DNA of 64,000 nt from Sphingomonas sp. (GTDB lineage: Bacteria; Pseudomonadota; Alphaproteobacteria; Sphingomonadales; Sphingomonadaceae), in the NCBI RefSeq assembly GCF_965248875.1, contig NZ_CBDFKR010000004.1:104151-168150 (forward strand), given 5' to 3'. This document shows positions 25,294 through 43,652 of the stretch, in pieces; the first letter of the stretch is position 1; each line of letters begins with the position of its first letter. A program made the position numbers and the translations under genes. The notes beneath the pieces were generated by a model that was not told where the DNA came from, did no database searches, and saw nothing but the letters and a program-made list of their open reading frames with translations.

Positions 25294-25296
25294 CAG

Positions 25297-25459: not shown

Positions 25460-25541
25460 ACGTGAGCCCCACTCCAGGAGAGCAGGTGGCAGGAGCGGCG
25501 CGGTAGCAGCGCGGACGGCGGTACGCAACGCCCGGCTCGGT

Positions 25542-26819: not shown

Positions 26820-26881
26820 CGCGCCGCGCTATCGCCCAAAAACCATAAGAAAGCATCGTGTCTTGCGGCGCGTGTTGGCGC

Positions 26882-27808: not shown

Positions 27809-28767
27809 CGCGAGCCGCTCATCTGCCGGATCGCGCGCGGGCAATCGCCGAACCGGCGCAGCAGATAGTCGCGCACCCCCGCGCGCCACGCCCGGGCGGT
27901 GGCGTGGCGGCCGAACAACAACGCCACGGCGCGCCGCGTCCGGGTCGGATATTGCGGAATCCGGCTGCTCAGTTTCTGGTACGACACGAGCTGCGCCGGG
28001 CGTTGTCGCAAGCCGCAATGGCGTTCCGCGAACAGCAGCTCGTTACGCGCGAGGAAGTAGATGTTGAGCGGCGACAACGCGCCGCCGATCGAACCGGAAC
28101 CGGCGTGAACGACACGCGCGGTGGTGGTCATCAGCATCTCGAACCCGGCCGCGCGGACGCGAAAGCACCAGTCGGTGTCATCGTAATTGAGGTAGAAATC
28201 GGCATCGAACAGACCGGCCCGTTCGAAATGGTCGCGGTGTGCGAACAAGGCCGCGCCCTTGACGAACGCGGTCGGATAGATGGCGGGCAGGTCGTCGAGC
28301 ACAACCTCCTGGACACGGGTGATGCGGGGCAGGCCGGTCGCCGCCTCGATTTCGGCGCCGACGAACTCGGGCGTGCGGCCGTCATGGTCGAGCTGCACCG
28401 GCCCGAGCACCGGCCGCGTCCCGCGCGTCCGGAACAGGTCGAGCAGGGTGGCGAGCGTGTCCGGCTCGACCAAAGCGTCGTTGTTGAGGATGAAGATGTG
28501 CTCGAACCCATCATCCAGCGCGCGGCGGACACCCAGATTGTTGCCGCCGGTCCAGCCGCCGTTGACCGACGAGCGCAGCAGGACGACGTCGGCGCCGAGA
28601 TCGGCCAGCTGTTCCAGCGAATCGTCGGTCGAGGCATTGTCGACCAGATACAGCCGCCACGTTGCGCCGCGGCTCCGGCGCAGCGACCCGAGGCAGGCGA
28701 GGCTCATCCGCCAGCCGTTCCAGTTGACGGTAACGACCGCGATGGCGTCGGGCGCGGCAGCGCTCAC
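27805..28767 (-). CDS. Glycosyltransferase family 2
   Basis: AVVTVNWNG..YLVDNASTDDS..ILNNDALV motifs (rhamnosyltransferase-like GT2). GTG start at 28767. Confidence 0.85.
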   Translation of the reverse strand: MSAAAPDAIAVVTVNWNGWRMSLACLGSLRRSRGATWRLYLVDNASTDDSLEQLADLGADVVLLRSSVNGGWTGGNNLGVRRALDDGFEHIFILNNDALVEPDTLATLLDLFRTRGTRPVLGPVQLDHDGRTPEFVGAEIEAATGLPRITRVQEVVLDDLPAIYPTAFVKGAALFAHRDHFERAGLFDADFYLNYDDTDWCFRVRAAGFEMLMTTTARVVHAGSGSIGGALSPLNIYFLARNELLFAERHCGLRQRPAQLVSYQKLSSRIPQYPTRTRRAVALLFGRHATARAWRAGVRDYLLRRFGDCPRAIRQMSGSR

Positions 28768-28770
28768 CCC

Positions 28771-29655
28771 TCAGCGCGCCCGCCGCTCGCTGTCGAGCAT
28801 GCCGAGCAGATAGTCGCCATAGCCGCTCTTGCGCTGCGGCGCGGCAAGTCGCTCCAATTGGGCGTCGTCGATATGGCCGAGCCGCCAGGCGATCTCTTCC
28901 GGACAGCAGATCTTCAAACCCTGGCGGTCCTCCGTCACCTTCACGTACAGTGCTGCGTCGAGCAGCGAGGCGTGGGTGCCGGTGTCGAGCCACGCATAGC
29001 CGCGTCCCATCAGTTCGACCGACAGCGTCCCCGCCTCCAGGTACAGCCGGTTGAGGTCGGTGATCTCCAGCTCGCCGCGCGCCGACGGCTTGATCCGGTG
29101 CGCGTAGTCGACCGCGTTGCCGTCGTAGAAATAAAGGCCGGTCACCGCATAGTTCGATCTGGGCGCGGCGGGCTTCTCTTCAATCGTCTCGGCGCGGCCG
29201 CGGCCGTCGAACGAGACGACGCCGTAGGAGGTCGGATCGGCGACATAATAGCCGAACACGGTCGCGCCGCCGTCGCGGGCATTGGCGGCGAGCAGCAGAT
29301 CGGTCAGCCCGTGACCGTAGAAGATGTTGTCGCCCAGGATCAGCGCCGACGGATCCGTGCCGACGAAATCCTTGCCGATGTGGAACGCCTGCGCCAGCCC
29401 ATCGGGGGAGGGCTGGATCGCGTAGGTGAGCGCAATGCCCCATTGCGATCCGTTGCCCAGCACGGTTTCAAACGCGGCGCGGTCCTCCGGTGTGGTGATC
29501 AGCAGGATCTCGCGGATGCCCGCCAGCATCAGCGTCGACAGCGGATAATAGATCATCGGCTTGTCATAGACCGGCATCAGCTGCTTCGAGACGCCGCGGG
29601 TCAGCGGGTGCAGCCGCGACCCCGTCCCGCCCGCCAGAATAATGCCCTTGCGCAT
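28771..29655 (-). CDS. rfbA: Glucose-1-phosphate thymidylyltransferase
   Basis: [53 protein letters not shown] is near-canonical RmlA. Confidence 0.95.
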
Positions 29656-29747
29656 GCTCGAACCTCGCCCGTATCGGGCGCTCTTACCCGGCTGGTGCAA
29701 TGCAGCAAACAACCTTGCCGGCGGATTTACGCAATGGGGGAGTTGAG

Positions 29748-30638
29748 GTGGCTGGGCCCAGCGTCGATGTCGCGGTCTGCACCTACCGGCGTGACACGCT
29801 CGCGCATGCGCTGCGGTCGATCGCGGGTCAGGTGTTGCCCGACGGCATTCGGCTGCGGGTGATCGTTGCCGACAATGACGAGGAACCGAGCGCACAGGCG
29901 CGCACGGCGGCGGCCGCGGCGCAGCTGACGCTGGACTGTCATTATGTCCATGCACCCGCGCGCAACATCTCGATCGCGCGCAACGCCTGTCTCGATGCCG
30001 CCGAGGCCGAGCTGCTGGCGTTCATCGACGACGACGAGGTGGCGACGCCGGGATGGATCGCCGCGCTGCTAGCCCGGCTGGACGAAAGCGGCGCGGACGC
30101 GGTGCTGGGGCCGGCGCGGGCCCGCTATCCAGCCGGCGCGCCCGGCTGGGCGGCGCGCGCGGACCTGCATTCGACGCGGCCGCCGCTGACCGAGACTGCG
30201 GCGATCCGGACGGGATATAGCTGCAACGTGCTGCTGCGGCTGCCCGCTTTTGCCGGCCTGCGCTTCGATCCGGCGCTGGGGCGGTCGGGGGGCGAAGACG
30301 ACTTGTTCTTCGCAACGGCGGTGCAGCGAGGCGCGCGGATCGCCTACGCGCCCGACGCGATCGTCGACGATCCGGTGCCGGCGGCGCGGCTGACGCTCGG
30401 CTGGCTGTGGCGGCGATCGTTCCGCAACGGCCAGACCTATGCGCGCACGCGCCTGGCGGCGGGCGGATGGCGGGCGCTGCTGCTGCCGGTCGCGGCGGGA
30501 AAGGCGTCGCTGTGCCTGGCTGGGGCGGCGCTGACGCTGGCATCGCCGGCGCGGTGGCGGCGGCTGGCGGTGCGCGGGGCGCTGCATCTGGGGGCGTGCG
30601 CGCGCTATTGCGGGCGGCGCGACCTGCAGCTTTACTAG
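29748..30638 (+). CDS. Glycosyltransferase family 2
   Basis: [28 protein letters not shown] motifs. GTG 29748 is preceded by GGGGAG; ATG 29700 is an alternative start. Confidence 0.8.
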
Positions 30639-30669
30639 TCCGCCGCCGCCGATCGGCTATTGAGACGCG

Positions 30670-31719
30670 ATGACCGACCCGCTTCTCTCCATCGTCATCG
30701 TCAACTTCAACTATGCGGCCTTCCTGCCGCAGGCGATCGATTCGGTGTTGGCGCAGACGGTCGCGTGCGAGGTAATCGTCGTCGACGACTGCTCGACCGA
30801 CGGCTCGCGCGCGGTGATCGAAGCCTATGGCGGGCAAGTGACGGCGGTATTCCGCGCCGCCAATGGCGGCATGTCGGCGGCGGTCAACACAGGGTTTGCG
30901 CAGTCGACCGGCGCGATCGTCCTGTTCCTCGACGCCGACGACTTCCTGTATCCCGATGCCGCCCGGCGCGTGCTGGATGCCTGGCACGACGGCGTGGCGC
31001 AGGTGCAGGCGCGCCTTCATCTTGTCGATGCCGACGGCCGTGTCGAGGATGTGTTTCCGCCCTATGAGATGCCGCTTGCGTCGGGCGACGTGACCGGGGG
31101 GCTGCGCAGCCGGGGGCGGTATGCAACGACGGTGACGACGGGCCTGGCGTTCGCGCGATCGGCCCTGGATCAGGTCATGCCGATCCCCGAACAGGCGTTC
31201 GACCGTTCGGCCGACGGCTATCTGGCGACGGTGGTGCCGCTGTATGGCGCGGTCGCCGCCATCGACACGCCGATCGGCGGCTATCGGCGGCACGGCGCAA
31301 ACCATAGCGGCTTCGCCGCCGACATGGCGAAGCGCGCGCGCTGGCGGGTCGAGCATGACGAGCATCGCTACACGGCGTTGCGCGACCATGCCGGGCGACA
31401 GGGGCTAGCCGTCGATCCCTCACCCGGCATGGGTGATGCGACGCATCTGGAGCAGCGGCTCGCGTCGCTGTGCTTCGACCGCGCGGCGCACGGCTATGCC
31501 GGCGATCGCCGCAGCCGGCTGGGGCTGGCGGGGGCGCGGGCGTCGATGGCGGGCGGCATGTCGTGGAAGCGGCGGGCGACGCAGGCGGGGATGTTCCTGG
31601 TCGCGGGGTTCACTCCGCTGTTCGTCGCGCGGCGCGCGCTGGCGTGGAAGCTGGAGCGGTCGAGCCGCCCCAAGGTGATCGACTGGGCGGCCGGGCGGTT
31701 GCGGCGGCTGATGGGCTGA
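30670..31719 (+). CDS. Glycosyltransferase family 2
   Basis: LLSIVIVNFNYAAFLPQAIDSVLAQT..VVDDCSTDGS..FLDADDF. Confidence 0.85.
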   Translation: MTDPLLSIVIVNFNYAAFLPQAIDSVLAQTVACEVIVVDDCSTDGSRAVIEAYGGQVTAVFRAANGGMSAAVNTGFAQSTGAIVLFLDADDFLYPDAARRVLDAWHDGVAQVQARLHLVDADGRVEDVFPPYEMPLASGDVTGGLRSRGRYATTVTTGLAFARSALDQVMPIPEQAFDRSADGYLATVVPLYGAVAAIDTPIGGYRRHGANHSGFAADMAKRARWRVEHDEHRYTALRDHAGRQGLAVDPSPGMGDATHLEQRLASLCFDRAAHGYAGDRRSRLGLAGARASMAGGMSWKRRATQAGMFLVAGFTPLFVARRALAWKLERSSRPKVIDWAAGRLRRLMG

Positions 31720-31724
31720 CCTGC

Positions 31725-32729
31725 TCAGAGCAGGAAGCGTGGCGTCGTATCCGGCGCGGGCGGCGCAGGAAGCAGCCTCTCGTGCAGCGTCGCCAGCTTG
31801 TCGCGTGCGATGTCGATGAGGACGCCCGACAGCGCGGCAGGGGTCGATGCCTCTTCGCGCAAGGCCGCGAGCGCGCCGACCAACCGCTTTCGGGCGAGCA
31901 CCGCGCGCAGCCGGCGCTTGCGCGCGGTCTGGGCGTGGAGGCGCTGAAGCTCCGTGCGAACTTCCGATCCCGGCGGCGCGGCGGCGACAAGGGCGAGCAT
32001 CGCCCCTTCGACCGCGGTGAGCTCGGCGACGCCGTGGCTGGTGCTCAACGAGCCACGGCGTTCGACGGCGACGTAGCGGCATGCGGCCGCGATCTTGAAC
32101 CGCGCGCCTGCGAGCAAGGCGCGGGTGTAGAGGTCGAAATCCTCCGACAGCCGGAGTTCCCGGGCGTAGCGCAGGCCGTGCGCGTCGAGAAAGGCGCGCG
32201 ACAGCAGCGGCTTGAGGAAGCCGAGTTCGCCCTTGTAGCGGCCACGCCGGGTGAGGCAGCCGCGGACGAACGCAGCCGCCGGCAGCGCGCGCGCCGCGAC
32301 CGGGTGAGCGGCGATCGCCGCGGCGTCGATGTCCGCTACCCGGCTCTCGTCGACAAAGGCGATGCTGTCGGCGATCATGTCCCAATCCGGGACGTCGAAC
32401 AGCGCGGCAAGCCGGCCGGGCAGAAAGAAATCATCGGCGTCGAGGATCGCGATGAAGGGCGATCTGCTCGCCTCGATGGCGCGATTGCGGGCGGCGGACG
32501 GCCCGACGTTGGCGGCCAGACATACCACGCTGAGGCGGCCGCTGCCGTCGTCCACCGCGCGTGCCGCTGCCGCGGTATCATCGGTTGAGGCATCGTCGAC
32601 GACGACCACCTCCGCGGTCTCCGGCTGGTCGAGCGCAGAGACCACCGCACGGCCGATTGTCGCCGCGCCGTTGAACGCGGCGATGATGACGCAGACGCGC
32701 GGGTCGGCGGGAACGGGCGGCTCGGGCAT
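31725..32729 (-). CDS. Glycosyltransferase family 2
   Basis: VCVIIAAFNGAATIGRAVVSAL..VVVDDASTDDT..ILDADDFF. ATG at 32729. Confidence 0.85.
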   Translation of the reverse strand: MPEPPVPADPRVCVIIAAFNGAATIGRAVVSALDQPETAEVVVVDDASTDDTAAAARAVDDGSGRLSVVCLAANVGPSAARNRAIEASRSPFIAILDADDFFLPGRLAALFDVPDWDMIADSIAFVDESRVADIDAAAIAAHPVAARALPAAAFVRGCLTRRGRYKGELGFLKPLLSRAFLDAHGLRYARELRLSEDFDLYTRALLAGARFKIAAACRYVAVERRGSLSTSHGVAELTAVEGAMLALVAAAPPGSEVRTELQRLHAQTARKRRLRAVLARKRLVGALAALREEASTPAALSGVLIDIARDKLATLHERLLPAPPAPDTTPRFLL

Positions 32730-32843
32730 TGTCGAGCGTCGTAGGCGGAGACGATGCGCGGCGGCAACGGTCCGTTCAGCGGTTTGCATCCAGAGAGGGA
32801 GCGGGTAGGCGCGGGCGGGCCGGCGGCTGGAGGCAAAAGGGCA

Positions 32844-33995
32844 GTGACGCAACGCGCGGCGACCGGCGAGCGCCACCCGAAAATCGCCTATCTGGTCCAC
32901 GACATCAACGATCCGGCGGTGGCGCGGCGCGTGTCGATGCTGCGCGCGGGCGGAGCGGAGCTGGTCGTCGCCGGATTTCGGCGCGATGAGCGCTCGCCGG
33001 CCGCGGTCGCGGGAGCGCAGGTGATCGATCTCGGCCGCACCGATGACGGCGCGCTGATCGGACGCGCGATCAAGGTGGTGGCGACGCTGCTGCGGCCCGG
33101 CGCGCTGCTGGCGGCGGCGGCAGGCGCCGACGTGGTGATCGGGCGCAATCTGGAGTGTCTGGCGCTGGCCAGGCGCGTGCGGCGTGCGCTGCCGGAGGTG
33201 CGCCTGGTCTATGAATGCCTGGATATCCACCGCACGCTGCTCGGCGGATCGCTGCCCGCCCGCGCTATCCAGCGCGTCGAGGCGGCGCTGCTGCGAACGG
33301 TGGACCTGCTGCTGGTGTCCTCACCGGCGTTCCATCGCGAGTATTTTGTGAAGCGCCCAACGCTGGCGGCGCCGGCGCTGCTGGTCGAGAACAAGCTGCT
33401 GGCGCTGGACGGCATGCCCGTCGCCGCCGACGCGCCGGCCGCCGGACCGCCCTGGACGATCGGCTGGTTCGGCAATCTGCGCTGCCGCCGCAGCTTTGCC
33501 TTGCTGAGCGAGCTTGCGCGGCGGGCAGAGGGACGCGTGCGCATCCTGATCGCGGGTCGCGCGAGCCCGGCGGTGTTCGACGACTTCGCCGCAAGTGTCG
33601 CCGCCGCACCGCATTGTACGTACGTCGGTCCGTACACGCCCGGGCAACTCCGCGAGTTGTACGGACAATGCCACTTCGCCTGGGGCATCGACTATTTCGA
33701 GGAAGGGCTGAACTCGCAATGGCTGCTGCCCAACAAGCTGTACGAGGCGGCGGCCTTTGGGACGGTGCCGATCGCGCTGCGATCCGTCGAGACCGGCAGG
33801 TGGCTGGAGGGGCACGGGGCGGGGCTCTTGCTCAATGACGGCGATCCGGTTGCGCAGCTCGAGCCGCAGTTCTCCGATGTGGACGATGCGGCCTACCGGC
33901 AGTTGCGTGCCGCGGTCGACGCGATCCCGCGCGGCGACCTGATCGCCGGTCAGGGTGATTGCGACACCCTGCTGCATGCGATCGTCGACGGATGA
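32844..33995 (+). CDS. Putative GT-B fold glycosyltransferase
   Basis: Two Rossmann-like halves (KIAYLVHDINDPAVARRV.. / ..WTIGWFGNLR..LPNKLYEAAAFGTVPIA). GTG 32844 lies 10 nt after GGAGG. Confidence 0.55.
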   Translation: MTQRAATGERHPKIAYLVHDINDPAVARRVSMLRAGGAELVVAGFRRDERSPAAVAGAQVIDLGRTDDGALIGRAIKVVATLLRPGALLAAAAGADVVIGRNLECLALARRVRRALPEVRLVYECLDIHRTLLGGSLPARAIQRVEAALLRTVDLLLVSSPAFHREYFVKRPTLAAPALLVENKLLALDGMPVAADAPAAGPPWTIGWFGNLRCRRSFALLSELARRAEGRVRILIAGRASPAVFDDFAASVAAAPHCTYVGPYTPGQLRELYGQCHFAWGIDYFEEGLNSQWLLPNKLYEAAAFGTVPIALRSVETGRWLEGHGAGLLLNDGDPVAQLEPQFSDVDDAAYRQLRAAVDAIPRGDLIAGQGDCDTLLHAIVDG

Positions 33996-34951
33996 CCGGG
34001 ATTCTCGTCGTCATTCCCTGCCTCAACGAGGAAGCGGCGCTGCCCGGGCTGCTGCGCCAGCAGCTCGCCGAGCCGGGGGACCATTCGATCGTCGTCGCCG
34101 ATGGCGGCAGCACCGATTCGAGCCGGGCGATCGTGGCGGCGGTGGCGCGCGACCATCCGCGGCTGACGCTGATCGACAACCCGGCGCGGTTGCAGGCGGC
34201 CGGCGTCAACCGGGCGGTGGCCGAGCTGGGCGGCGACGCGCGCTGGCTGGTCCGGATCGATGCCCATTGCGACTATCCCGAGGGCTATGTGCGCAAGCTG
34301 ATCGACACCGCCGAGCGGCAGCACGCGACCTCGGTGGTGGTGCCGATGGTCAGCCGCGGCGAAACCTGCTTCCAGCGCGCCGCCGCCACCGCGCAGAATT
34401 CGCGGCTCGGCACCGGCGGCTCGCCGCATCGCCATGTCGGGACGGGCGCCTGGGTCGATCACGGCCATCACGCGCTGATGGACATGACGCTGTTCCGGCA
34501 GGTCGGCGGCTATCGCGAGACGATGTCGCACAACGAGGATGCCGAGCTCGACCTTCGGTTGGCCGCGGCCGGGGGGCGGCTGTGGCTGGAGCCGCGACTC
34601 GCGCTTGGATACCTGCCCCGCCGGTCCGCTGCGCAGTTGTGGCGACAGTATCTCGGCTATGGCCGGGGGAGGGCGCAGACGCTGCTGCTCCATCGGCGGC
34701 GGCCCAAGCTGCGCCAGACGCTGCCGCTCGCGGTCCCGGCCGCGGCGCTGGTCGCGCTGCTGACGCCGGTGCACTGGCTGTTCGCCGCGCCGCTGCTCGG
34801 CTGGGCGCTGCTGTGCCTGGCGGGCGGCATTGCGATCGGCGCGCGTGCGGGCGGGGGGTGTGCGATGTTGAGCGGCGTGCCGGCGATGATCATGCACCTG
34901 GCCTGGGGACTTGGATTCCTGGCCCGTATCGCGCGGCGCCGGATGTTGTAA
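33992..34951 (+). CDS. Glycosyltransferase family 2, ExoA-like
   Basis: ILVVIPCLNEE..VADGGSTDSS..RIDAHCDYPEGY, with C-terminal TM helices as in succinoglycan ExoA-type enzymes. ATGA overlap with the upstream gene. Confidence 0.8.
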   Translation: MTGILVVIPCLNEEAALPGLLRQQLAEPGDHSIVVADGGSTDSSRAIVAAVARDHPRLTLIDNPARLQAAGVNRAVAELGGDARWLVRIDAHCDYPEGYVRKLIDTAERQHATSVVVPMVSRGETCFQRAAATAQNSRLGTGGSPHRHVGTGAWVDHGHHALMDMTLFRQVGGYRETMSHNEDAELDLRLAAAGGRLWLEPRLALGYLPRRSAAQLWRQYLGYGRGRAQTLLLHRRRPKLRQTLPLAVPAAALVALLTPVHWLFAAPLLGWALLCLAGGIAIGARAGGGCAMLSGVPAMIMHLAWGLGFLARIARRRML

Positions 34952-35053
34952 GTTTTCGCTGTCCTACAAGCAGTCCCGGAACATAAGCCGAACATTGCAT
35001 GAGTCGCCGCTGTCGGCGGCGCCTGCGTGAACCATCGGCACAAGGACAATTTC

Positions 35054-35323
35054 ATGAGTATCGACCCCTATCGCGACGCCGCCGACGGCGCCTGCGACTC
35101 GGCGCGCGCACCCTTTGCGATCGCACCGCACGACAGCAACGAGCTGACCATCATCCCCAAGGCGATCTACGTCGGCACCGGCGGTTCCGTCACCCTCCGG
35201 GGGGTCGCAGGCAGCGCGGATGTCGTGTTCAAGAACGTGGCGAGCGGGCAGGTGATCGACGTCCGCGCCCGCTTCGTTCGCGCAACGGGCACGACCGCCG
35301 CCGACCTGGTGGCGCTCGCCTGA
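35054..35323 (+). CDS. Small protein resembling the gene-transfer-agent head-spike base (Rcc01079/GhsA-like)
   Basis: 89 aa: MSIDPYRDAADGA..FAIAPHDSNELTIIPKAIYVGTGGSVTLRGV..VRATGTTAADLVALA. The pattern matches my recollection of the Rcc01079 family. Not verified by any search. Confidence 0.5.
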   Translation: MSIDPYRDAADGACDSARAPFAIAPHDSNELTIIPKAIYVGTGGSVTLRGVAGSADVVFKNVASGQVIDVRARFVRATGTTAADLVALA

Positions 35324-36546
35324 TGGCCCGCATCGGTCTGGGGCTCAGCCGTCACCGCAGGGGGCCGATCGGCGTGCCGGTCACTGCCCCGCCTCCTCCA
35401 CCCCCGCCGCCGGCCGCGCCGACGGGCTTTACCGCGAACGGCGCCGCCAATGCGGCGCTGAAGGCGATGCTCACGCGCGTTGCGGCGGGAACGGGGCGGG
35501 GGCGCATCGTCTTCAAGGGTGATAGCACCACCGCGGGGGCGGGCGGCGGCGACCCGACCAGCACCCAGCAGCTCGGCGGCGCCAGGGCCAACCGCACTGC
35601 GGCGGTGCTGGCGGCGCGGTTGTCGGCGGCCGGCTATCCGGCGCTCGACAATGGGGTGGTCGGCGACAACGGCAACAAGGCCTTCGTGCCGCTGCCGGTC
35701 TATGATCCGCGCGTGACGCTCGGTGCGTCGTCGCCGTGGATCGCGGACGGCGGCCAGGGTTTTGCCGGCGGCAATTTCCTCTTCAGCCCCGGTGGCGGCA
35801 CCTTTGACTTCACGCCGGCCGTTGCGGTCGACCGTTTCGAGGTCGTCGCGTTCAATGTCGGCGGCAGCTATAGCTTTCTCGTCGACGGCGCGGCGCCGGG
35901 CACGGTGGCTGCGCCGGGCGCGACGATCGCCGGCGGCGGGGTGTCGGTGCCGGGCGGCAACGCCGGCTTCACCCGGATCACCGTCACGGCGGCTGCAGCC
36001 GGCATCCACAGCCTGCGCGTGACGACCAGCACGGCGGCGGCGATGCGATCGGTGATGGCCTGGGCGAACGGAACGTACGCGATCGACATCCTCAATCACG
36101 CGAGCAACGGTGCGACCTCGGCCGATCAGGCGACGGCCGGCAGCAACTGGTCGAACAACGACTCGCTGGCGTTCGACGCCCCGGACCTGACCATCATCAA
36201 CCTGGGGTTGAACGACATCGGCGGTCAGGTGGCGATCGCCGCCTACCGCACCAGCCTGCAGACGATCGTCGATACGGCGCGGCTGTCCGGCGACGTCCTG
36301 CTCGTCTTCCCCCATCCGGCGGGCAGCCAGTTCGCGATCAATCCGGCCGCTTATCGCGATGCCGCCGCGGCGCAGGCGGCGGCGAGCGGCGTCGCCTTTC
36401 TCAGCCTGTTCGACTATTTCGGCGGGGCGTTCACCCCGGCGCTGCAGGCGCGAATGGCGGACGGGCTGGTCCACGGCGACGCCGCCTTCTACGCCGAGGT
36501 CGGCGAGGTCTATCGCCAGTGCATCGCCGTCATGGCCGCGCCGTGA
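35323..36546 (+). CDS. SGNH/GDSL hydrolase family protein with N-terminal Pro8 linker and inserted beta-rich module
   Basis: SGNH blocks IVFKGDSTTAG (I), NHASNGAT (II), INLGLNDIGG (III) and DGLVHGD (V). The start ATG overlaps the preceding stop (TGATG). Confidence 0.7.
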   Translation: MARIGLGLSRHRRGPIGVPVTAPPPPPPPPAAPTGFTANGAANAALKAMLTRVAAGTGRGRIVFKGDSTTAGAGGGDPTSTQQLGGARANRTAAVLAARLSAAGYPALDNGVVGDNGNKAFVPLPVYDPRVTLGASSPWIADGGQGFAGGNFLFSPGGGTFDFTPAVAVDRFEVVAFNVGGSYSFLVDGAAPGTVAAPGATIAGGGVSVPGGNAGFTRITVTAAAAGIHSLRVTTSTAAAMRSVMAWANGTYAIDILNHASNGATSADQATAGSNWSNNDSLAFDAPDLTIINLGLNDIGGQVAIAAYRTSLQTIVDTARLSGDVLLVFPHPAGSQFAINPAAYRDAAAAQAAASGVAFLSLFDYFGGAFTPALQARMADGLVHGDAAFYAEVGEVYRQCIAVMAAP

Positions 36547-36570
36547 CGGCGATCCTGTGCTGGCCGGCGT

Positions 36571-37242
36571 CTAATACAGCCAAGTGCTCCATTTGGCATA
36601 GGGCGCCCAGGCCGTGCCCGTCCTGCGAAAGGCATAGGTGCTGCCCTGATGCGCCGCCGTGACCGAGACAAAGGCGACATTGTCGACGATGATCGTCCGC
36701 GAGACGGTGTAGACCGGGTGGCAGGACGAGGTCAGGCGGTTCCACCCCCACCAGCGCACCCGCGCATGGGGCGCATCCGCCGTTTCGGCGAGGCGCACGG
36801 GCCGGCTCGTCTCCAGCAGCGACGCGCGGTTGGCATAGCCGTTCAGCTGCCCCTGATCGACCACCGACAGCTGGCCTTGCAATGACGGCCGCTCAGGCAG
36901 CACGACATGCTCGCCCTGCAGCTCGCTGCCGATCAGATCGCGGCCCGACAGGTTGCGGCCGGGGTCGAGCGGCCGGGGCGCGGTCCAGCCCAGCGGCCGC
37001 CGCGCTGGCTCAGGCGCGGGGAGCATGTCACGGTAGATCGCCAGGGGTTCACCCCGCGCGCCGCTGTCGACGCAGATGTTGCGGCCGTCGGCGGTCAACA
37101 CCTTGAGCAGCAGCGTGTTGATCTGCCGCTCGTCGGCGGTGCCGTGCCAACCCGAACATCCGCCCAGCACCGCCAGCAACGATAGCGGCAGCAGCCGGGC
37201 GCGTACCCTGGCCCTCGGTTTGCTAAAGTGAAGCAGAATCAA
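36571..37242 (-). CDS. Hypothetical lipoprotein
   Basis: Lipobox LLAVLGGCSG. No recognisable domain. TTG start at 37242 with AGGAG 8 nt upstream. Confidence 0.5.
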   Translation of the reverse strand: MILLHFSKPRARVRARLLPLSLLAVLGGCSGWHGTADERQINTLLLKVLTADGRNICVDSGARGEPLAIYRDMLPAPEPARRPLGWTAPRPLDPGRNLSGRDLIGSELQGEHVVLPERPSLQGQLSVVDQGQLNGYANRASLLETSRPVRLAETADAPHARVRWWGWNRLTSSCHPVYTVSRTIIVDNVAFVSVTAAHQGSTYAFRRTGTAWAPYAKWSTWLY

Positions 37243-37329
37243 TCCTCTCGCTCCTGTCCCAATTCGGGGCTGGACCGTTTGCCTTCTTAAGGCAAGTTGC
37301 GTATCTGATTGGACTTAGTAGGGGAAGCC

Positions 37330-38034
37330 ATGACAACGCCCGTCGAGCAGCCGGTCAGCAACCACCGTCGCCAGCGCCTGTTGTTGGCCGGACTGTCTAC
37401 CATTGCGCTCGCGCTGGCGCTTGTCCCGCGTCAGGAACGCGCGCTGTTCATCACGGAGGCCGTCGGGCTGCGCGCGTTCGCCGCCGCCGTACCGCCGCCG
37501 ATCGATTTCGCCAGCCTGGCGAGACTGCCCAACCTCGTCGACTCGGTCGGCCCGCGCGGCTTCTATGCGCGCACGCCCGGACGGCCGGTGGGGTCTAACC
37601 GGCGCAGCGCGGCGCCGGTCGCCGAGGATTTCACGACGCCCACCGCCCCCTTCGTCCCCGACGATCAGCCTGTCGCCGGAGAAGGTCAGGGGCCGACCAT
37701 CCAGAATGCCGCGGTACCGGCCTTTCCTTCGTCGCCCGGCGATGCGTTTCCGTTCCTGCCGGCGGGGCTGAACCAGCCCGGCGCGAGCCCGGTGGCGCAG
37801 GCGGTGACGCCGACCACCCCGATCGCGACAGCGACCCCGACGCCGACGGCGACCGCCACCCCGACCCCGACCCCGAGCGCATCGCCGACACCGACCCCGG
37901 CCGCCACGGCGACGCCGGTCGTGCCGGCCGTGCCGGAGCCCGCGACCTGGGCGCTGATGATCCTGGGGTTCGGCGGTGTCGGCGGGTTGCTGCGGCGCGA
38001 CCGCGGCACGGCCGATCGGCTTCGCCGGGTCTGA
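37330..38034 (+). CDS. PEPxxWA-CTERM sorting-domain protein with Thr/Pro-rich linker
   Basis: C-terminus VPEPATWALMILGFGGVGGLLRRDR, preceded by TPTTPIATATPTPTATATPTPTPSASPTPTPAATATP. Confidence 0.8.
   Translation: MTTPVEQPVSNHRRQRLLLAGLSTIALALALVPRQERALFITEAVGLRAFAAAVPPPIDFASLARLPNLVDSVGPRGFYARTPGRPVGSNRRSAAPVAEDFTTPTAPFVPDDQPVAGEGQGPTIQNAAVPAFPSSPGDAFPFLPAGLNQPGASPVAQAVTPTTPIATATPTPTATATPTPTPSASPTPTPAATATPVVPAVPEPATWALMILGFGGVGGLLRRDRGTADRLRRV
37858..37875 (+). repeat. (ACCCCG)x3 in-frame tandem hexamer encoding Thr-Pro
   Basis: Read directly at 37858-37875, within a longer degenerate ACN-CCG tract (about 37800-37920). Confidence 0.7.
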
Positions 38035-38064
38035 CGCCCGGTCTGCGCTCGGGCCCGACGCCGG

Positions 38065-38550
38065 TTAGCGCAGCTCCAGCTGGCTGCCGCGGAACGTGAT
38101 CGAGCGCATTTGCGACAGGGCGCTCTGACCGAGCAGCGAGACGTCCAGATCGCGCTGGACAATGACGGCGTCGACATCCGCCAGATCCTGACCGGCGAGC
38201 GCCAGCCGCTGCAGCCGTGCTCGATGCATCGGCGCGGACCCGCCTGCCGTGTCGACGCTGACCCCGCCATGAGAGACGACGCCCGCACGCGCGGCGTCGG
38301 CGGCGTTGAGGATCACGACGCTGGCGCCCGAATCGACGACGAAGCGGACGGGGGCGCCGTTCACCTTCGCCTCAAGATAGAACAGTCCGTCGCGTGCCTG
38401 GTCGATCACCAGCGGCTCGCCAGCCGAGGGCGGGGGCGCAAGCGGAGGCTGCGGCGATACGACCTCGGGCGCCTGCGCCATGAAGGCTTTCGGGCCCCCG
38501 GCCGCGGGAGCCAGAACCAGCGCGAGTGCGACGGGCATCAGCCTGAGCAT
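38065..38550 (-). CDS. Retropepsin-like (clan AA) aspartic protease, secreted or membrane-anchored
   Basis: Signal/anchor MLRLMPVALALVLAPAAG, then FYLEAKVNGAPVRFVVDSGASVVIL (D-S-G-A active-site loop) and ..LLGQSALSQM.. as in the bacterial DTGA protease family. Confidence 0.75.
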   Translation of the reverse strand: MLRLMPVALALVLAPAAGGPKAFMAQAPEVVSPQPPLAPPPSAGEPLVIDQARDGLFYLEAKVNGAPVRFVVDSGASVVILNAADAARAGVVSHGGVSVDTAGGSAPMHRARLQRLALAGQDLADVDAVIVQRDLDVSLLGQSALSQMRSITFRGSQLELR

Positions 38551-38609
38551 GGCCGCACCCTACCGGCCGCACCTTAAGGAATTGCCGCGTCCTTGTTGTT
38601 AACGCGCGG

Positions 38610-39479
38610 TCAAGTACTTACGGGTTCGCCATGCACCTGCCGGTCGATGCGGCGCACGCGGCGCCGCTGGAACAGGCCGAGCGCCAGCGCCAGCAAGGCG
38701 CCGATCACCAGCTGCACCGCCGTCGTGATGTACGGCCAGCGCATCGCGGCCGGTTCGGCGAACAGGACGTAATGCGGCTGATCGACCTGATAGCCGGCGT
38801 AGCGGAACAGCCGCACGATCTCGCCCGGCAGGCCGTTGCGCTTCAGCACCCCCGTCATGGTCATGGCGCCCGCATTGGTGCGCGCGTCGGCGGGAGCGAA
38901 CTGAACGAAATAACGCAGCTCGTTGCCGCCCTGACGCGCGCCGACGACCGGCGCAAAGCGGAAGGTGCGCCGCGCCACCAGCATGTCTTCGTCAAACCCC
39001 GCGGTGCGCTCGTACAGCACGGTGCCCGACAATTCGGTCGGCCCCTCGTGCGGCTCGGTCAGTGCGGGCCGGGTCAGGTCGATATGCTGCACCGGCCCCC
39101 GCTCGCTCGGCAGCAGCAGCATCATCACCAAGATGAGCAGCGCGATCGCCCCCATCCCGATCACGGCGCCGATCACGGCGCGCAGGAAGGTGCGCGCGGA
39201 CCGGAACAGCAGCGCGTCGGGCCGGTCGTCCTCCGCCAGCGCGCGCGGCCGCAGGAAGATGAGATAGCCGGGCAGGCACAGCAGCAGGACCAGCAGGACG
39301 TAGTTCAGCGTCGCATAGTGCCGGCCGAAGGCGTTGAACTGCCACTCGCCGATCAGCGACATGATCCCTTCATATTTCGCAGCCTGCCAGAACAGGAACA
39401 GGCCGACGATCACGACCCAGGCGGCAAAGCCGGCGATCCTGGTGACCGACAGGCGTTGTTGAGTCCGCCGACTGGTCAT
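38610..39479 (-). CDS. Hypothetical polytopic membrane protein
   Basis: Three N-terminal TM helices, a soluble segment of about 130 aa and one C-terminal TM helix. No recognisable motif. ATG 39479. Confidence 0.55.
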   Translation of the reverse strand: MTSRRTQQRLSVTRIAGFAAWVVIVGLFLFWQAAKYEGIMSLIGEWQFNAFGRHYATLNYVLLVLLLCLPGYLIFLRPRALAEDDRPDALLFRSARTFLRAVIGAVIGMGAIALLILVMMLLLPSERGPVQHIDLTRPALTEPHEGPTELSGTVLYERTAGFDEDMLVARRTFRFAPVVGARQGGNELRYFVQFAPADARTNAGAMTMTGVLKRNGLPGEIVRLFRYAGYQVDQPHYVLFAEPAAMRWPYITTAVQLVIGALLALALGLFQRRRVRRIDRQVHGEPVST

Positions 39480-39648
39480 GCACTTCCTCTCTTCGTTGGC
39501 GGCATGGCCTACTGCATAAGCCTTGGAATGTCTCAAACAAAGACGACGGCGGTGGGTTGCAATCGGGGCCGCATGCCCGCGGGGAAAGCGCGTGGCGCGC
39601 GGGGCAAACGCTGCTAAGCAGCCCGCCAACAAACGGCTGGAGGACCGA

Positions 39649-40533
39649 ATGACCACAATGCCCGTCACCGCATCGCGTCGCACGCGGCGCCGGCTGCCGC
39701 TGCTTGCCGTCGCGATCGCGCCGCTGCTGATCATGGGCTGCCAGAAGAAGCCGGGCGGCCAGGTCGTCGCGGTGGTCGGGTCGGAAGAGATCACCCAGCC
39801 CGAGCTGCGCGCGGAGGCCGATGTTGCCGGCGTGCCGGCCGGCACCGACATCCAGACCTATGCGCCTGCGATCCTGGATCGCGTGGTGCAGCGCAACCTG
39901 CTGGCGCAATATGCCCGCGATCAGAAGCTCGACCGCGGCCCTGAATATGTCGCGCGTCGCCGCCAGCTCGAACAGTCGCTGCTCGCCAACTTGGCATTGA
40001 AGCGGATCGCCTCCGCGCAGCCGGCGCCGACCCCGGGCGAGGTGCAGGCCTTTATCCAGCAGAACCCGGCCACGTTCAGCGGGCGGGCAAGACTGACGCT
40101 GGATCAGGTGCGCTTCCCCGCGCCGACCAACGTCAACAGGATCAAGGAGCTGGCGGCGATGCCATCGCTCGACGCGATCGTCGCCCGGCTGCAGGCGGAG
40201 CATGTCCCGGCCGGGCGCGGACGCGCCGTGCTCGACACCGGCACCGTCGAATCGATGGTCGCGCGCCAGATCGCCTCGCTTCCCAACGGTCAGCTGTTCG
40301 ACCTGACGGTGAACGGCATCACCTTCATCAGCGCGGTGGTGGATCGGCAGCCTGCGGCGACCGCCCCGGGCACGTGGAACGAATCGGCAACCGCCATGCT
40401 GCAGCGCGAACGGGTGCAGAAGGCGCTGGTCGCTGAAATGGCGAAGCTGCGAGCCGCTACGCGGATCACCTATGACCCCGCCTTCCAACCCGCTGCCCGG
40501 CCCAGCGGCCAGGCTACCGGTCGCGCACGGTGA
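39649..40533 (+). CDS. SurA/PpiD-like peptidyl-prolyl isomerase, EpsD family (exosortase-locus associated)
   Basis: Lipobox LLIMGCQ, SurA-N-like ..VVGSEEITQPELRAE..ILDRVVQRNLLAQYA.., and a degenerate parvulin-like C-terminal half. GGAGGA lies upstream of ATG 39649. Confidence 0.6.
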   Translation: MTTMPVTASRRTRRRLPLLAVAIAPLLIMGCQKKPGGQVVAVVGSEEITQPELRAEADVAGVPAGTDIQTYAPAILDRVVQRNLLAQYARDQKLDRGPEYVARRRQLEQSLLANLALKRIASAQPAPTPGEVQAFIQQNPATFSGRARLTLDQVRFPAPTNVNRIKELAAMPSLDAIVARLQAEHVPAGRGRAVLDTGTVESMVARQIASLPNGQLFDLTVNGITFISAVVDRQPAATAPGTWNESATAMLQRERVQKALVAEMAKLRAATRITYDPAFQPAARPSGQATGRAR

Positions 40534-40804
40534 CAAGCGCGCCGCATTACCGGCTTCCTCCAGAGCGTAGCGCGGCGGAAATCGCCGGGTTGGAGCGGGG
40601 CTTTGCGGTTTGCTGCACCGCCGAGCGACAATCGTACTGATCCATGCTGCAGTGCGATGTCTCGAATCGGGATTCGGCGATTTTTGGACCGACTCCGGAC
40701 TGGACTCGATCGCTAAAGAATGATTAAACGAAATCGAGAAGGGAGCGCTTCCGCGTTCCTATGATGGCTTGGTTGCCGGTTTGGCATCGCAAGGGGGCAT
40801 GACA

Positions 40805-41527
40805 ATGCGTAAGTATATGCTGGCCGGCGCTACCGCCGCGCTGATGACATCGGGGGCCGCGATGGCTGCTCCTCCTCCCACGGTTCTCTTCACCCCTGGC
40901 GTGTACACCGTTCCGGCGTACACCACTGCTGCGGTGTTCGAGGATTTCAATAACGGCGGCGTCGCCAATGGCGGTCAGTTCACGACGCCGGCGGTCAGCC
41001 CGTACACCGAGACGAAGACTGGTGACGTCCGGGTCTATCCGGGCACGCAGAACCAGCCTGGCGTCGCGCTTCAGCCCGACGGTTCGCCCGATGCGTATCT
41101 GGCGATCGTGAACGGCACCTTCAACGTCGCCTTCGGCGCCGGTGTGACGCTGTTCTCGTTCTCGTTCGGCTCGCTCGACAACTACAATACGGTTGCGATT
41201 ACCACGACCGATGGGTCGGGCTCGACCGTGACGACCTATTCGGGACTCGGCATCACGACTGGCCTGACCGCCAACAACACGGCGCCGGGCGCGACGCCTG
41301 CACCGTTCGCCGGGCCGAACAACACCGGGCGGATCACCTATGACACGCTGGGCCTGTCGCGCATCACCAATGTCGCGTTCAGCTCCACGCAGGCTGCCTT
41401 CGAGATCGACGCGCTCGCCGCTGCCGTTCCGGAGCCCGCTACCTGGGGTCTGATGATCCTAGGCTTCGGCCTCGCCGGCGCCGCGCTGCGGGTCCGTCGT
41501 CGCAAGGTGGCGTTCGCCGCCGCCTGA
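40805..41527 (+). CDS. PEPxxWA-CTERM sorting-domain surface protein
   Basis: Signal peptide MRKYMLAGATAALMTSGAAMA, FSFGSLDNYN motif, and C-terminus VPEPATWGLMILGFGLAGAALRVRRRK. Confidence 0.85.
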   Translation: MRKYMLAGATAALMTSGAAMAAPPPTVLFTPGVYTVPAYTTAAVFEDFNNGGVANGGQFTTPAVSPYTETKTGDVRVYPGTQNQPGVALQPDGSPDAYLAIVNGTFNVAFGAGVTLFSFSFGSLDNYNTVAITTTDGSGSTVTTYSGLGITTGLTANNTAPGATPAPFAGPNNTGRITYDTLGLSRITNVAFSSTQAAFEIDALAAAVPEPATWGLMILGFGLAGAALRVRRRKVAFAAA

Positions 41528-41543
41528 TCTACAGCATTTCGTC

Positions 41544-41586
41544 AAAGAAGCGTCACCTCTGCGGAGGTGGCGCTTCTTTGCGTTTG
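41544..41586 (+). terminator. Rho-independent terminator after the PEPxxWA gene
   Basis: AAAGAAGCGTCACCTC-tgcg-GAGGTGGCGCTTCTTT (16-bp stem with one G-U pair), followed by GCGTTTG. Confidence 0.65.
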
Positions 41587-41621
41587 TGCTATGGTGCAGG
41601 TGAGGTCCGGGAAGGGCGACG

Positions 41622-41870
41622 ATGACGGTCTTCGATATCTTGACGCTGGCCCTGTTTGGCGGGCTGATCGTGTTGTTTCTGGAGAGGTCTATCGGAAATG
41701 CGCCGGCGCATGATCCGCTCTGGCGCTATCTGGTTGCAGCCAGCGGCTGTGCTGCGACCAATTATGTCGGCAATCAGGGCTATTCGATGATCGCCGTCGT
41801 CATGCTGGTCGCGACACTGGCCTATATCGTCTACGTTCTGCGGCCATTCGATCGCCTGTCGCAGCACTGA
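41622..41870 (+). CDS. Small (82 aa) three-TM membrane protein of unknown function
   Basis: MTVFDILTLALFGGLIVLFL..WRYLVAASGCAATNYV..MIAVVMLVATLAYIVYVL. Has its own position between a terminator and the epsI/exosortase genes. Confidence 0.55.
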   Translation: MTVFDILTLALFGGLIVLFLERSIGNAPAHDPLWRYLVAASGCAATNYVGNQGYSMIAVVMLVATLAYIVYVLRPFDRLSQH

Positions 41871-42063
41871 TCGCTGCCGCGACAAAGGAGCGGGTGCGCC
41901 GAGATCGTCGATTGCCCCGCCTCACGCAGAGCGGTTCGTGCTCGTCAACCGGGCCACGGCGGTGACCGGCATGCACGCACGGGGCTGCCGGTAAAATGGT
42001 TCGGGGGATCAGCCTGGCCGAGACACCGGGCGCTTCGGCAGTCAGTCGACGCAACCTCGACCG

Positions 42064-42759
42064 TCACCCCACCCCGATCAACACCTGCCGGCCGGCCGGG
42101 GTTGCGGTCGCAACCATCTCCTGGGCGAATCGGGCCAGTTCGCTTTCCGCCCCCCGGTCGTCCGGGCCGATCGACGACACCCGCACCAGGATGCCGTCGG
42201 GCACCGTCCCGCGCAGCACGCTCCGGATGATCGTCGCATATTCCTGCGCCGTGTTGCGCGGGAAGCGGTCGGCGATCCGCGTCCAGTAGAGCACGCGCTC
42301 GGTGCGCTCGTCGCGCCGCGCGGTAAAGCCGCGCGCCTGCACGGGTAGCCCGGGCGCCAGCGGGAGGTCCGAATCGGCGAACGCGCTGAGCCGGAAGCCT
42401 TGGCCGGGATAGCAGGTCTCGGGCCGATGGAGTTGGAGGCTGCCCCCCTGCGTGCTGCCATAGGCGATCAGCAGCATGATCGTCGGCAGGCCCGGCGCGA
42501 CATAGACCCGCGTCAGCAGTTGATCATAGCCGTCGGTATTCGCCACCTCCTCGGTCGGCACGATCACCCCCGCAGGCGCCGTGACGCTCCACTGCCCGAC
42601 CCGGCGTGCGATCAGGTCGCCCAGCTTGCGATGCGCGAGCCGGTGCTCGGTATGGCGCGGCTGCACCCCCCAGGCTGCTGCCGACGTCAGCGCCATCGCG
42701 CCGCCGATCACCAGGCCGCGCCGGGAGATTCCCGGCCGCGGAAGCAAGGACTCAGTCAT
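42064..42759 (-). CDS. EpsI-family exosortase-associated protein
   Basis: N-terminal anchor, then ..LHRPETCYPGQGF.. and ..RVLYWTRI..-type EpsI motifs. ATGA overlap with the exosortase gene. Confidence 0.7.
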   Translation of the reverse strand: MTESLLPRPGISRRGLVIGGAMALTSAAAWGVQPRHTEHRLAHRKLGDLIARRVGQWSVTAPAGVIVPTEEVANTDGYDQLLTRVYVAPGLPTIMLLIAYGSTQGGSLQLHRPETCYPGQGFRLSAFADSDLPLAPGLPVQARGFTARRDERTERVLYWTRIADRFPRNTAQEYATIIRSVLRGTVPDGILVRVSSIGPDDRGAESELARFAQEMVATATPAGRQVLIGVG

Positions 42760-43652
42760 GCCGGTTCTCCCCGCCGGCCGGCCCACCGGCTCAGCACCGA
42801 ATCGATCGCGATCGTCCCGGCCAGCGCCACCGCAAACATCGTCATTCCCGCAAACTGGTGCAGGAAGCCCTGCGCCGCCTCGTTTCCCATGTAATAGGTG
42901 ATGAGGATCAGCAGGATGACACGGACGAAATTGGCGAGGACCGCCATCGCCACGATCACCGCGGCCATCATCAGGACATAGGCCGGCCGCGCGCTGTGAC
43001 GGATGTAGACGTAGAACAGCCCGATCGCGCTGAGGCTGATGATCGAGTTGAGGCCGCTGCACGCGGCCTTCACCTCAAGCGCATATTGACCGATATAGAT
43101 GGTCAGCCCCGACTGCGCGACGGGCAGCCCCAACTGCGCCAGCAGCGAGACGGCAATGCCGGAAATGCCGAGGCGCAGCGGCTGGGTAGCGGTCGCCACC
43201 CAGCTACCCGGCGGGGGCAGCACGAACAGGAAATAGGCGATCGGAAACCACGCCGCCTTCATCGCGCGCCATCCGACCAACAGATAAAGCGTCGCGACAA
43301 GGGCGCCGTACATCGCCGCGCTTTCCAGCACGATGCTGCCGGCGACGCGCGCGACCATGTAGCTGAGCAGACAGATCGCTAGCGCCGCGCCGCCGCGCAG
43401 CGCCGAGCCGGGCGCCGCCAGGGCGCGGATGGCGGACCAGCGTCTGAAGAACAGCCATAACGCGATCGCGAGCACGATCGGGCCGTGTGCGCCCTGCTCG
43501 GTCGACCAGGATACCGCCGCGATCCCCTGCATCGTCGGCACGACCAGCAACGCAGCGCCGATCAGCAACGGCAGCAGCCGCCAGTCGATTCGCAAGGCGG
43601 GAAGCGGGCGGCGCAGCCTGGGCGGCGTCAGCTCGGCATGCGTAGTCGACAT
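42756..43652 (-). CDS. Exosortase (XrtA-like; subtype to be decided by HMM, possibly the Sphingomonadales type)
   Basis: About 8 TM helices, conserved active-site region LEVKAACSGLNSIISL, and adjacent EpsI, EpsD and PEP-CTERM cargo genes. Confidence 0.8.
   Translation of the reverse strand: MSTTHAELTPPRLRRPLPALRIDWRLLPLLIGAALLVVPTMQGIAAVSWSTEQGAHGPIVLAIALWLFFRRWSAIRALAAPGSALRGGAALAICLLSYMVARVAGSIVLESAAMYGALVATLYLLVGWRAMKAAWFPIAYFLFVLPPPGSWVATATQPLRLGISGIAVSLLAQLGLPVAQSGLTIYIGQYALEVKAACSGLNSIISLSAIGLFYVYIRHSARPAYVLMMAAVIVAMAVLANFVRVILLILITYYMGNEAAQGFLHQFAGMTMFAVALAGTIAIDSVLSRWAGRRGEPA

Follow-up and report, generated by a model that had tools for sequence, protein, structure and literature searches.

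Here, we describe two overlapping genes, designated open reading frame (ORF) A and ORF B, in a 64,000-nt stretch of DNA from Sphingomonas sp. (referred to as the window; contig NZ_CBDFKR010000004.1, positions 104,151 to 168,150 of the forward strand). The pair probably encodes the head spike of a gene transfer agent (GTA) of this bacterium which resembles the Rhodobacter capsulatus GTA (RcGTA), and it appears to have been relocated from the head-tail gene cluster into an exopolysaccharide (EPS) locus. ORF A belongs over its full length to the Rcc01079 spike-base family, and ORF B has the position and the predicted anchor of an RcGTA-type head fibre. The assignment to a GTA is strengthened by homologous pairs embedded in RcGTA-like head-tail clusters of other Sphingomonas and by promoter elements which these clusters have in common with the pair.

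In the cryo-electron microscopy paper on RcGTA, the head spike consists of a pentamer of Rcc01079 and one Rcc01080 fibre, and residues 2-10 of the fibre (IALGLGLGL) occupy hydrophobic pockets of the base in the shape of a five-pointed star. The genes of these proteins, ghsA and ghsB, adjoin capsule genes and are located away from the head-tail cluster (Hynes et al.), as had been stated in an earlier interpretation of the window made without database searches, hereafter the sequence-only reading; they are also co-regulated with the capsule genes. RcGTA-like clusters are described in the literature as widespread in the Sphingomonadales.

ORF A (35054..35323, forward strand) encodes the head-spike base protein of 89 aa and extends from an ATG at 35054 to a TGA at 35321-35323. 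ORF B (35323..36546, forward strand) encodes a predicted SGNH esterase fibre of 407 aa. As stated in the sequence-only reading, the stop codon of the former overlaps the start codon of the latter (cTGATGg). That reading had placed the pair at 35027-36546, of which the end is correct; position 35027 is an in-frame GTG upstream of the real start, from which a 98-aa version of ORF A could be translated, and every homologue starts at the ATG. A ribosome-binding site (AAGGA, 35042..35046, forward strand) can be read from the sequence 8 nt 5′ of this ATG. The third-position G+C content of 0.81-0.87 in both ORFs, the number of database homologues (280 for ORF A and 54 for ORF B) and the ratios of nonsynonymous to synonymous substitution rates (dN/dS) given below show that both are genuine genes and did not arise by chance from the G+C content of 69%. 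An exact-sequence look-up returned no record for ORF B or for either form of ORF A (89 and 98 aa). The pair is separated by a 102-bp gap from a GT2 gene on the same strand and is flanked on its other side by a convergent gene.

ORF A matches the NCBIfam model NF048002, “spike base protein, RCAP_Rcc01079 family”, with 94 bits (cutoff 28, E=5e-27) over profile positions 1-84 of 85, and additionally PHROG 12296, which is annotated as tail fibre. Searching the PDB sequences with phmmer, the chains named “Head spike base Rcc01079” of 6TB9, 6TBA, 6TSU and 6TUI were detected (E=3e-7), followed by a weaker match to the “Spike Base Protein” of phage Carin1 (8CJZ), on which a literature search returned nothing. 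The AlphaFold2 (AF2) model of ORF A, built with 25 homologues (predicted local distance difference test score, pLDDT, of 76), comprises an unstructured N-terminal arm of about 19 residues and a beta-sandwich or jelly-roll. Its top fold match in the PDB is the RcGTA base 6tb9_A1 with template modelling (TM) scores of 0.75/0.78 and 31% identity; the next best is the capsid spike base of phage Carin1 (8cjz). Residues D4 and D11 are conserved in at least 90% of the homologues. ORF A is therefore a full-length spike base of this family, and the similarity to Rcc01079 proposed in the sequence-only reading, for which profile and structure comparisons had been suggested as checks, was found by both means.

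ORF B can be divided into three parts. The first 14 residues (35323..35364, forward strand) form a hydrophobic-Gly anchor with a basic patch, MARIGLGLSRHRRG, which is predicted to plug into the base pentamer. Residues 15-34 (35365..35424, forward strand) are a Pro-rich linker whose flexibility is indicated by its sequence and its low pLDDT; its length varies between homologues. Residues 35-407 (35425..36546, forward strand) constitute an SGNH O-acetylesterase-like domain according to the Pfam match, the catalytic residues and the AF2 fold. Taken together, the N-terminus reads MARIGLGLSRHRRGPIGVPVTA, followed by Pro8 (aa 23-30) and AAPTGF. The protein starts with M-A-R-I-G-L-G-L-S, and homologues start with, for example, MARLGLGLGLGVGRRR or MRGFGFGVGKRR, from which the pattern M-x-R/G-[ILF]-G-[LF]-G...RR can be derived.

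The sequence motifs noted earlier for ORF B, namely the N-terminal segment, Pro8 and the SGNH blocks GDSTTAG (aa 66-72), NHASNGAT (about aa 257-264), GLND (around N297) and DGLVH (380-384), were all located, and the insertion between blocks I and II, estimated at about 190 aa, measures about 185 aa. The codons of Ser68 and His384 are at 35524-35526 and 36472-36474, respectively. In the search against Pfam and NCBIfam, which had also been proposed, ORF B matches Lipase_GDSL_2 (PF13472) with 50.9 bits (gathering threshold 32.9, E=3e-13) over residues 246-391 only, and no NCBIfam model. The residues S68, N297 and H384 are identical in all of 27 homologues, with D67, G263 and D380 conserved in at least 90% of them. 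The AF2 model (pLDDT 93.6, predicted TM score 0.91), in which residues 1-14 are disordered, places the strands of aa 131-247 between helices of the SGNH core, as part of an inserted beta-sandwich (about aa 128-250; 35704-36072, forward strand). No PDB entry was matched by sequence search. By fold, the best PDB matches in Foldseek are the Ape1 structures 4k3u and 8gld, aligned over the whole length (393-407 columns, E=4e-17, TM scores 0.63/0.72), and among predicted viral structures (BFVD) phage tail-fibre, minor-tail and hydrolase proteins were detected (query TM score, TMq, 0.64-0.69). The partner of the base, named an SGNH esterase from its motifs alone in the sequence-only reading, thus appears by Pfam match, conserved catalytic residues and fold to be an SGNH esterase with Ape1-like O-acetylesterase architecture, whose enzymatic activity and substrate are predicted. 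No Sec or Tat signal and no membrane segment was seen in ORF A or ORF B by inspection.

For a comparative view, 80 Sphingomonadales loci carrying the base family were fetched (loci and metagenome contigs are labelled L###), with gene calls from our own script based on third-position G+C. The partner ORF nearly always begins on the stop codon of the base gene. A hydrophobic-Gly-hydrophobic motif is found in 50 of 68 distinct partner N-termini and is usually followed by an Arg-rich patch. The remaining partner sequences fall into about 20 unrelated classes of 130-925 aa, several of which carry SGNH, SASA esterase or ConA-like lectin domains. The partners in phages start alike (MGLGLGIGLGLS in RcapNL and MIGLGLDLSL in P8625); the RcapNL fibre matched no Rcc01080 chain among the PDB sequences, a set from which this chain seems to be missing. 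Since a common anchor precedes unrelated C-termini and is also present in the phage partners, the pair is a conserved adaptor of base and N-terminal anchor with exchangeable distal domains.

The family occurs in three genomic settings. In a prophage of S. hankookensis, a pair whose second member is again an SGNH protein closes the tail and lysis module at the late-gene end. The second setting is the GTA cluster, in which the base and a 305-aa fibre of L144 are located directly 3′ of the HK97 capsid gene and before the tail genes. This RcGTA-like cluster is complete and contains genes for terminase, portal, DUF6127, S78 protease, capsid, tail completion, major tail, two tail-assembly chaperones, DUF2460/TIM-barrel, Phage_BR0599 and Phage-tail_3/Rcc01698_C. 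The order of capsid and base was also found in L041, L063, L071, L072, L077, L079, L080 and L147, and the Sphingomonas GTA cluster L146 is devoid of embedded spike genes. ORF A and the base of L144 share 58% identity, and full-length alignments (E about 1e-10 to 1e-14) were obtained between GTA-embedded fibres and some of the fibres from orphan EPS loci. In the third setting, which comprises most other loci, the pair stands alone in EPS loci or at other chromosomal sites, often beside homologues of window genes such as those for exosortase, Poly_export, the retropepsin-like protease with its neighbour, and Bac_transf. A prophage-borne origin of the clade of L036, L038 and L051 was rejected, since its pairs are orphans beside housekeeping genes; we take these genes to be fabH, plsX, dapB and nth, judging by only their N-terminal sequences. 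In a neighbour-joining tree (88 residues, weak resolution), the orphan bases group together and apart from the one prophage base.

Two observations were made on the capsid genes in passing. In L147 (S. aliaeris CP061035.1), the spike base (9132-9398) follows the capsid gene without an anchor-bearing fibre next to it; gene calling in the examined region yielded neither terminase nor portal, and this GTA-like cluster may be degraded. In addition, the major capsid protein of Sphingomonas GTAs falls into two length classes, one near 350 aa and the other near 333 aa. Among the clusters examined, L144 and L147, with an embedded spike base, have the long form and the spike-less L146 has the short one, which with n=3 may be a coincidence or may relate to spike docking.

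The region upstream of ORF A contains a succession of conserved blocks on the forward strand. A T-rich stretch followed by CTGTCCTACA (34952..34968, with (G)CTGTCCTACA at 34959-34968) is conserved in orphan operons and occupies the -35 region. It is followed by GAACATA-agcc-GAAC (34979..34993), consisting of a -10-like ACATA and a GAAC element common to GTA promoters, and by GAGTC (35001..35005), a GANTC site of the CcrM-methylated kind which may be methylated. Rfam yielded nothing above noise upstream of ORF A, and only a tRNA in the whole window; therefore, the blocks were taken as promoter elements rather than as a known RNA. Interpretations as CtrA site (TTAA-N7-TTAA), EcfG promoter (GGAAC-N16-17-CGTT) or Pho box were rejected by eye due to misfits in spacing or sequence, and a literature search with the motif string retrieved only unrelated primers.

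Within the survey, 53 of about 80 loci have T[GT]TCCTAC at a distance of 57-105 nt 5′ of the start codon of the base gene, and the CTGTCCTACA element was not found in the GTA-embedded or prophage copies of the pair. Seven head-tail promoters of Sphingomonas GTAs follow the scheme ACCAAATNGG-N10-TTGACA-N17-G[T/C]ACATA-N4-GAAC-N13-GANTC, with the ACATA element at the -10 position in all seven and GANTC in six. Among the 53 orphan promoters, 20 contain ACATA-N3-5-RAAC (shuffle mean 0.05), 22 a CCAAATNGG box (shuffle mean 0.07) and 33 a GANTC downstream of the motif (shuffle mean 8.8), although these shuffle controls ignore the shared ancestry of orthologous promoters. Upon alignment of orphan and GTA promoters, the elements are colinear, with CTGTCC opposite the TTGACA of the -35 box. 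We interpret these sequences as one family of sigma-70-type promoters, in which GTA clusters and orphan spike operons have the -10-proximal part in common; this is suggestive of their co-regulation.

When metagenome contigs were scanned for the composite motif under strict conditions, most matches were spike-base operons. The other matches are described here in their own right. In L123, L130 and L134 (CTGTCCTACA-N-GAACATA-N4-GAAC), the motif precedes a conserved operon of the EPS locus, whose products are a secreted protein (about 157 aa), a polysaccharide-deacetylase-like (CE4-like) protein of 470 aa and a Wzy-like membrane protein; this operon is placed between a sugar transferase gene and a Wzz/tyrosine-kinase (PTK) gene. 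In L117 (4653-11606, oriented) and L107 (1546-3692), the motif is located 5′ of large fibre-like proteins starting with MSGFD(F/P)xARxLA. The former has 2317 aa with a region resembling a beta-helix; the latter has about 570 aa, is preceded by a beta-rich ORF of 146 aa and lies near rfbB-like genes. Neither has a Pfam match, nor has the small ORF of L107, and both may be products of further dispersed virion or adhesin genes. In L128 (8902-10688), the motif is followed by the gene of a 307-aa protein, the stop codon of which overlaps with the start codon for an SGNH (GDS) protein of 287 aa, and type I secretion genes are located next to them; the logic is like that of base and esterase, and a spike_base homologue is missing there. 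Of 26 matches in viral contigs, 25 were rejected as chance matches in low-GC phages, and the only high-GC one, L107, is a chromosomal fragment.

The window itself contains two further copies of the extended promoter-like motif, which as an exact 10-mer is expected about 0.1 times per window, so that these copies suggest a wider regulon. On the reverse strand, attcTGCTGTCCTACAgg (4119-4128) is found between convergent genes, immediately past the stop of an Oxidored_FMN gene, and atttttGTGTCCTACA (13975-13984) about 30 nt 5′ of the ATG of an alpha/beta-hydrolase gene (12675-13943, reverse strand). Two copies of a direct repeat, gatgcgcgagcctctacttagcctct[a/g]cttcc (about 32 nt), are present at 3965-4050 (reverse-strand reading), 3′ of the 4119-4128 motif and overlapping the 3′ end region of a P450 gene.

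The pair is embedded in an exosortase/PEP-CTERM-type EPS locus (20882..63517) that was delimited by Pfam scans and synteny. It comprises genes for a flippase, GT2, GT4 and WbsX glycosyltransferases, three PEP-CTERM proteins, a retropepsin-like protease, the exosortase EpsH, Poly_export, Bac_transf, Wzz/PTK, GH16 and Wzy_C as well as sugar-nucleotide genes. As anticipated in the sequence-only reading, the locus also harbors an O-acyltransferase gene (Acyl_transf_3, 22439..23683, forward strand; PF01757, E=8e-25), the product of which might be the source of the substrate of ORF B.

The closest relative, L089, is fully syntenic, with 88% identity of the base and 74% of the esterase. The dN/dS ratio in this comparison is 0.15 for the base, the lowest value in the locus, and 0.23 for the esterase, and ranges from 0.22 to 0.27 for seven neighbours. 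The synonymous divergence (dS) is similar for the pair (0.58-0.78) and its neighbours (0.58-1.13). The syntenic arrangement with a homologous esterase partner is also found in L001, L015, L022 and L053 and thus, with L089, in at least five species. The pair is under purifying selection and was inherited together with its neighbours; dN/dS, the matching dS and the recurrent synteny rule out a recent insertion or a decaying remnant in our assessment.

Some additional features of the locus and its surroundings are as follows. The exosortase gene of L089 (10104-10352) has a precomputed Pfam XrtV match, suggesting that the system of the window, with its EpsH gene at 42756-43712, is of the exosortase V type. 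A gene for a Hydrolase_2 protein (SleB-like cell-wall hydrolase) is located in the EPS locus (59391-60734, forward strand), and in L001 such a gene (11775-13067) is found about 290 nt 3′ of the esterase gene, past a 63-aa ORF; a lysis or penetration function linked to the spike is possible for both. A tRNA-Leu(GAG) gene (25373-25459, reverse strand) lies between the genes of a PEP-CTERM protein and the WbsX glycosyltransferase. No convincing gene could be called at 15251-18315, where an ORF of 546 aa (16751-18391) has an unusually high second-position G+C content (0.70) and no Pfam match.

In the model that we favor, ORF A would form a pentameric jelly-roll base, the N-terminal arms of which dock to the penton of an HK97-fold capsid. 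One copy of ORF B per base would serve as the fibre, with the Ile-Gly-Leu-Gly-Leu peptide at its N-terminus filling the hydrophobic pockets of the pentamer. The basic, Pro-rich linker would then extend an Ape1-like SGNH carbohydrate O-acetylesterase with a beta-sandwich of the carbohydrate-binding type. Both proteins would be produced by translational coupling (TGATG) from their own promoter with the ACATA-N4-GAAC and GANTC elements common to GTA promoters, probably co-regulated with a GTA encoded elsewhere in this genome. Since neither protein has a signal peptide, they would leave the cell by lysis only, on the capsids of the particles. The spikes would bind the O-acylated EPS of the strain itself and strip its acyl groups, resulting in a reversible, receptor-destroying attachment and in passage through the EPS layer, and the linkage to the EPS locus would keep the specificity of the fibre in step with its receptor.

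Several results weigh against this model. As already stated in the sequence-only reading, no phage or GTA structural gene is found nearby: none, including a capsid gene, was detected among the approximately 40 larger ORFs of the 64-kb window that were scanned with Pfam. Likewise, none of the best 120 of 7066 capsid matches is on a contig carrying an orphan pair. The anchor of ORF B is one of the shorter ones, with three clear hydrophobic positions (I4, L6, L8) versus five in RcGTA, and the esterase activity and its substrate are predictions. Homology between the body of ORF B and Rcc01080 was not demonstrated and is unlikely, because no conserved domains are detectable in Rcc01080 (Hynes et al.) and ORF B is an SGNH protein. 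Furthermore, CTGTCCTACA is absent from the GTA head-tail promoters, and the composite motif also precedes the EPS-type operons with secreted and CE4-like proteins in L123, L130 and L134. The regulon of this motif is therefore wider than the GTA genes and could be an EPS regulon.

The last point leads to the alternative already raised in the sequence-only reading, according to which the pair was exapted as an EPS-modifying enzyme and the base, off any capsid, scaffolds or stabilises an esterase that trims the O-acyl groups of the strain's own EPS. The promoter of the type CTGTCCTACA...GAACATA-N4-GAAC at L123, L130 and L134, the stable location within the EPS locus right after the GT2 gene of the same strand, the O-acyltransferase gene and a purifying selection equal to that on the EPS genes are in line with this proposal. 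However, an enzyme lacking (by inspection) export signals and membrane segments would miss the EPS of an intact cell, and both the capsid-docking arm and the base-fibre anchor are still conserved, with the base showing the lowest dN/dS of the locus. The same base family is also embedded in GTA clusters with interchangeable fibres, and about 20 unrelated fibre types in one slot are a trait of a receptor-binding cassette, unlike a biosynthetic step. We consider exaptation a weaker explanation than a GTA spike, and a rather unlikely one.

Such a cassette could instead belong to true prophages and decorate the capsids of resident or superinfecting temperate phages, or act as a decoy or in superinfection exclusion. 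This is suggested by the pair at the late-gene end of the S. hankookensis prophage, by the family members in the phages RcapNL and P8625 and by the base on the capsid structure of phage Carin1. We regard it as unlikely, since no prophage genes were found among the scanned ORFs within 29 kb on either side and, in contrast to the volatile content of prophages, the location is kept between species and between genera, with a dS like that of the host. The promoter elements shared with GTA clusters and the separation of the orphan bases from the prophage base in the tree, weakly resolved as this short alignment is, point in the same direction. The isolation of the pair from all other phage genes would also be expected of a decaying remnant of a lost prophage with no present function. 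With both ORFs intact, dN/dS ratios of 0.15 and 0.23, invariant core catalytic residues (S68, N297, H384) and synteny and a dedicated promoter maintained over many species, this explanation is improbable in the extreme.

A GTA head spike relocated to the EPS locus is therefore the explanation we prefer. GTA head-spike genes outside the structural cluster and beside polysaccharide genes are already known from Rhodobacter. New features, as predicted from models and alignments, are a head fibre that is an Ape1-like enzyme, the conserved placement in exosortase EPS loci of the Sphingomonadaceae, the cassette-like variety of fibres attached to a constant anchor, the occurrence of both embedded and orphan pairs and the shared promoter elements. 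Two publications covering GTAs of the Sphingomonadales (Kogay and Zhaxybayeva 2022; Kogay et al. 2024) do not contain the word “spike”. A broader generalisation is conceivable and is put forward tentatively: in the Sphingomonadaceae, head-spike operons might have moved from the head-tail cluster to the exosortase EPS locus, where a swappable fibre (often an esterase or lectin) would co-diversify with the polysaccharide, under a CTGTCCTACA/ACATA-N4-GAAC regulon including EPS-remodelling genes, so that the donor-recipient (kin) specificity of transfer would be tied to the capsule type by means of an enzymatic, receptor-destroying head fibre.

GTAs are widespread in the Alphaproteobacteria, and to our knowledge the choice of recipients is known for R. 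capsulatus only. If our interpretation is true, the linkage of genes for spike and receptor biosynthesis would be a recurrent design present in a second order and not a peculiarity of Rhodobacter. Head fibres could be enzymes such as O-acetylesterases beyond lectins, and fibre cassettes could be swapped with no change of base and N-terminal anchor. In addition, the results provide a search rule for head fibres of GTAs and phages, namely a spike_base gene followed by an overlapping gene starting with M-x-x-[ILF]-G-[ILF]-G, as well as a candidate promoter signature for a dispersed GTA regulon of Sphingomonads.

Compared with GhsA and GhsB of RcGTA, the pair shares the base family and its fold, the adjacency of the two genes, the hydrophobic-Gly start of the fibre and the location beside polysaccharide genes, apart from a head-tail cluster. 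It differs in belonging to the order Sphingomonadales, in the body of ORF B, which is an SGNH esterase with a beta-sandwich, in the number of hydrophobic anchor positions (three instead of five), in the exosortase/PEP-CTERM type of the EPS locus and in its own CTGTCCTACA promoter element, and its association with a GTA is putative. With the embedded Sphingomonas spikes of the L144 type, it has in common a base of 58% identity, the ATGA overlap, the anchor motif and, for some orphan EPS-locus pairs, related fibres. The promoters also share elements, with ACATA-N4-GAAC and GANTC occurring in the window and CCAAATNGG in other orphans. In contrast to L144, the pair of the window is an orphan with a different, predicted enzymatic fibre and its own promoter, in which CTGTCCTACA replaces TTGACA.

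The esterase domain can be compared with the peptidoglycan O-acetylesterase Ape1 of Neisseria (4k3u) and Campylobacter (8gld), in which the SGNH domain is likewise split between blocks I and II by a beta-sandwich similar to carbohydrate-binding modules. ORF B retains the Ser, Asp and His as well as the Asn and Gly residues. However, the identity is only 10-19%, ORF B lacks a signal peptide and carries an N-terminal spike anchor and a linker instead, and its substrate is likely EPS rather than peptidoglycan. Finally, tail fibres, tailspikes and hydrolases with SGNH domains from Klebsiella phage Sin4, Rhodococcus phage ReqiPoco6 and Gordonia phages resemble ORF B in the esterase-plus-insert fold (TMq 0.64-0.69) and in the concept of a virion-borne enzyme that modifies the receptor. 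Unlike these proteins, which are annotated as tail components, ORF B is marked by its N-terminus as a putative head-spike fibre on the penton base of a capsid.

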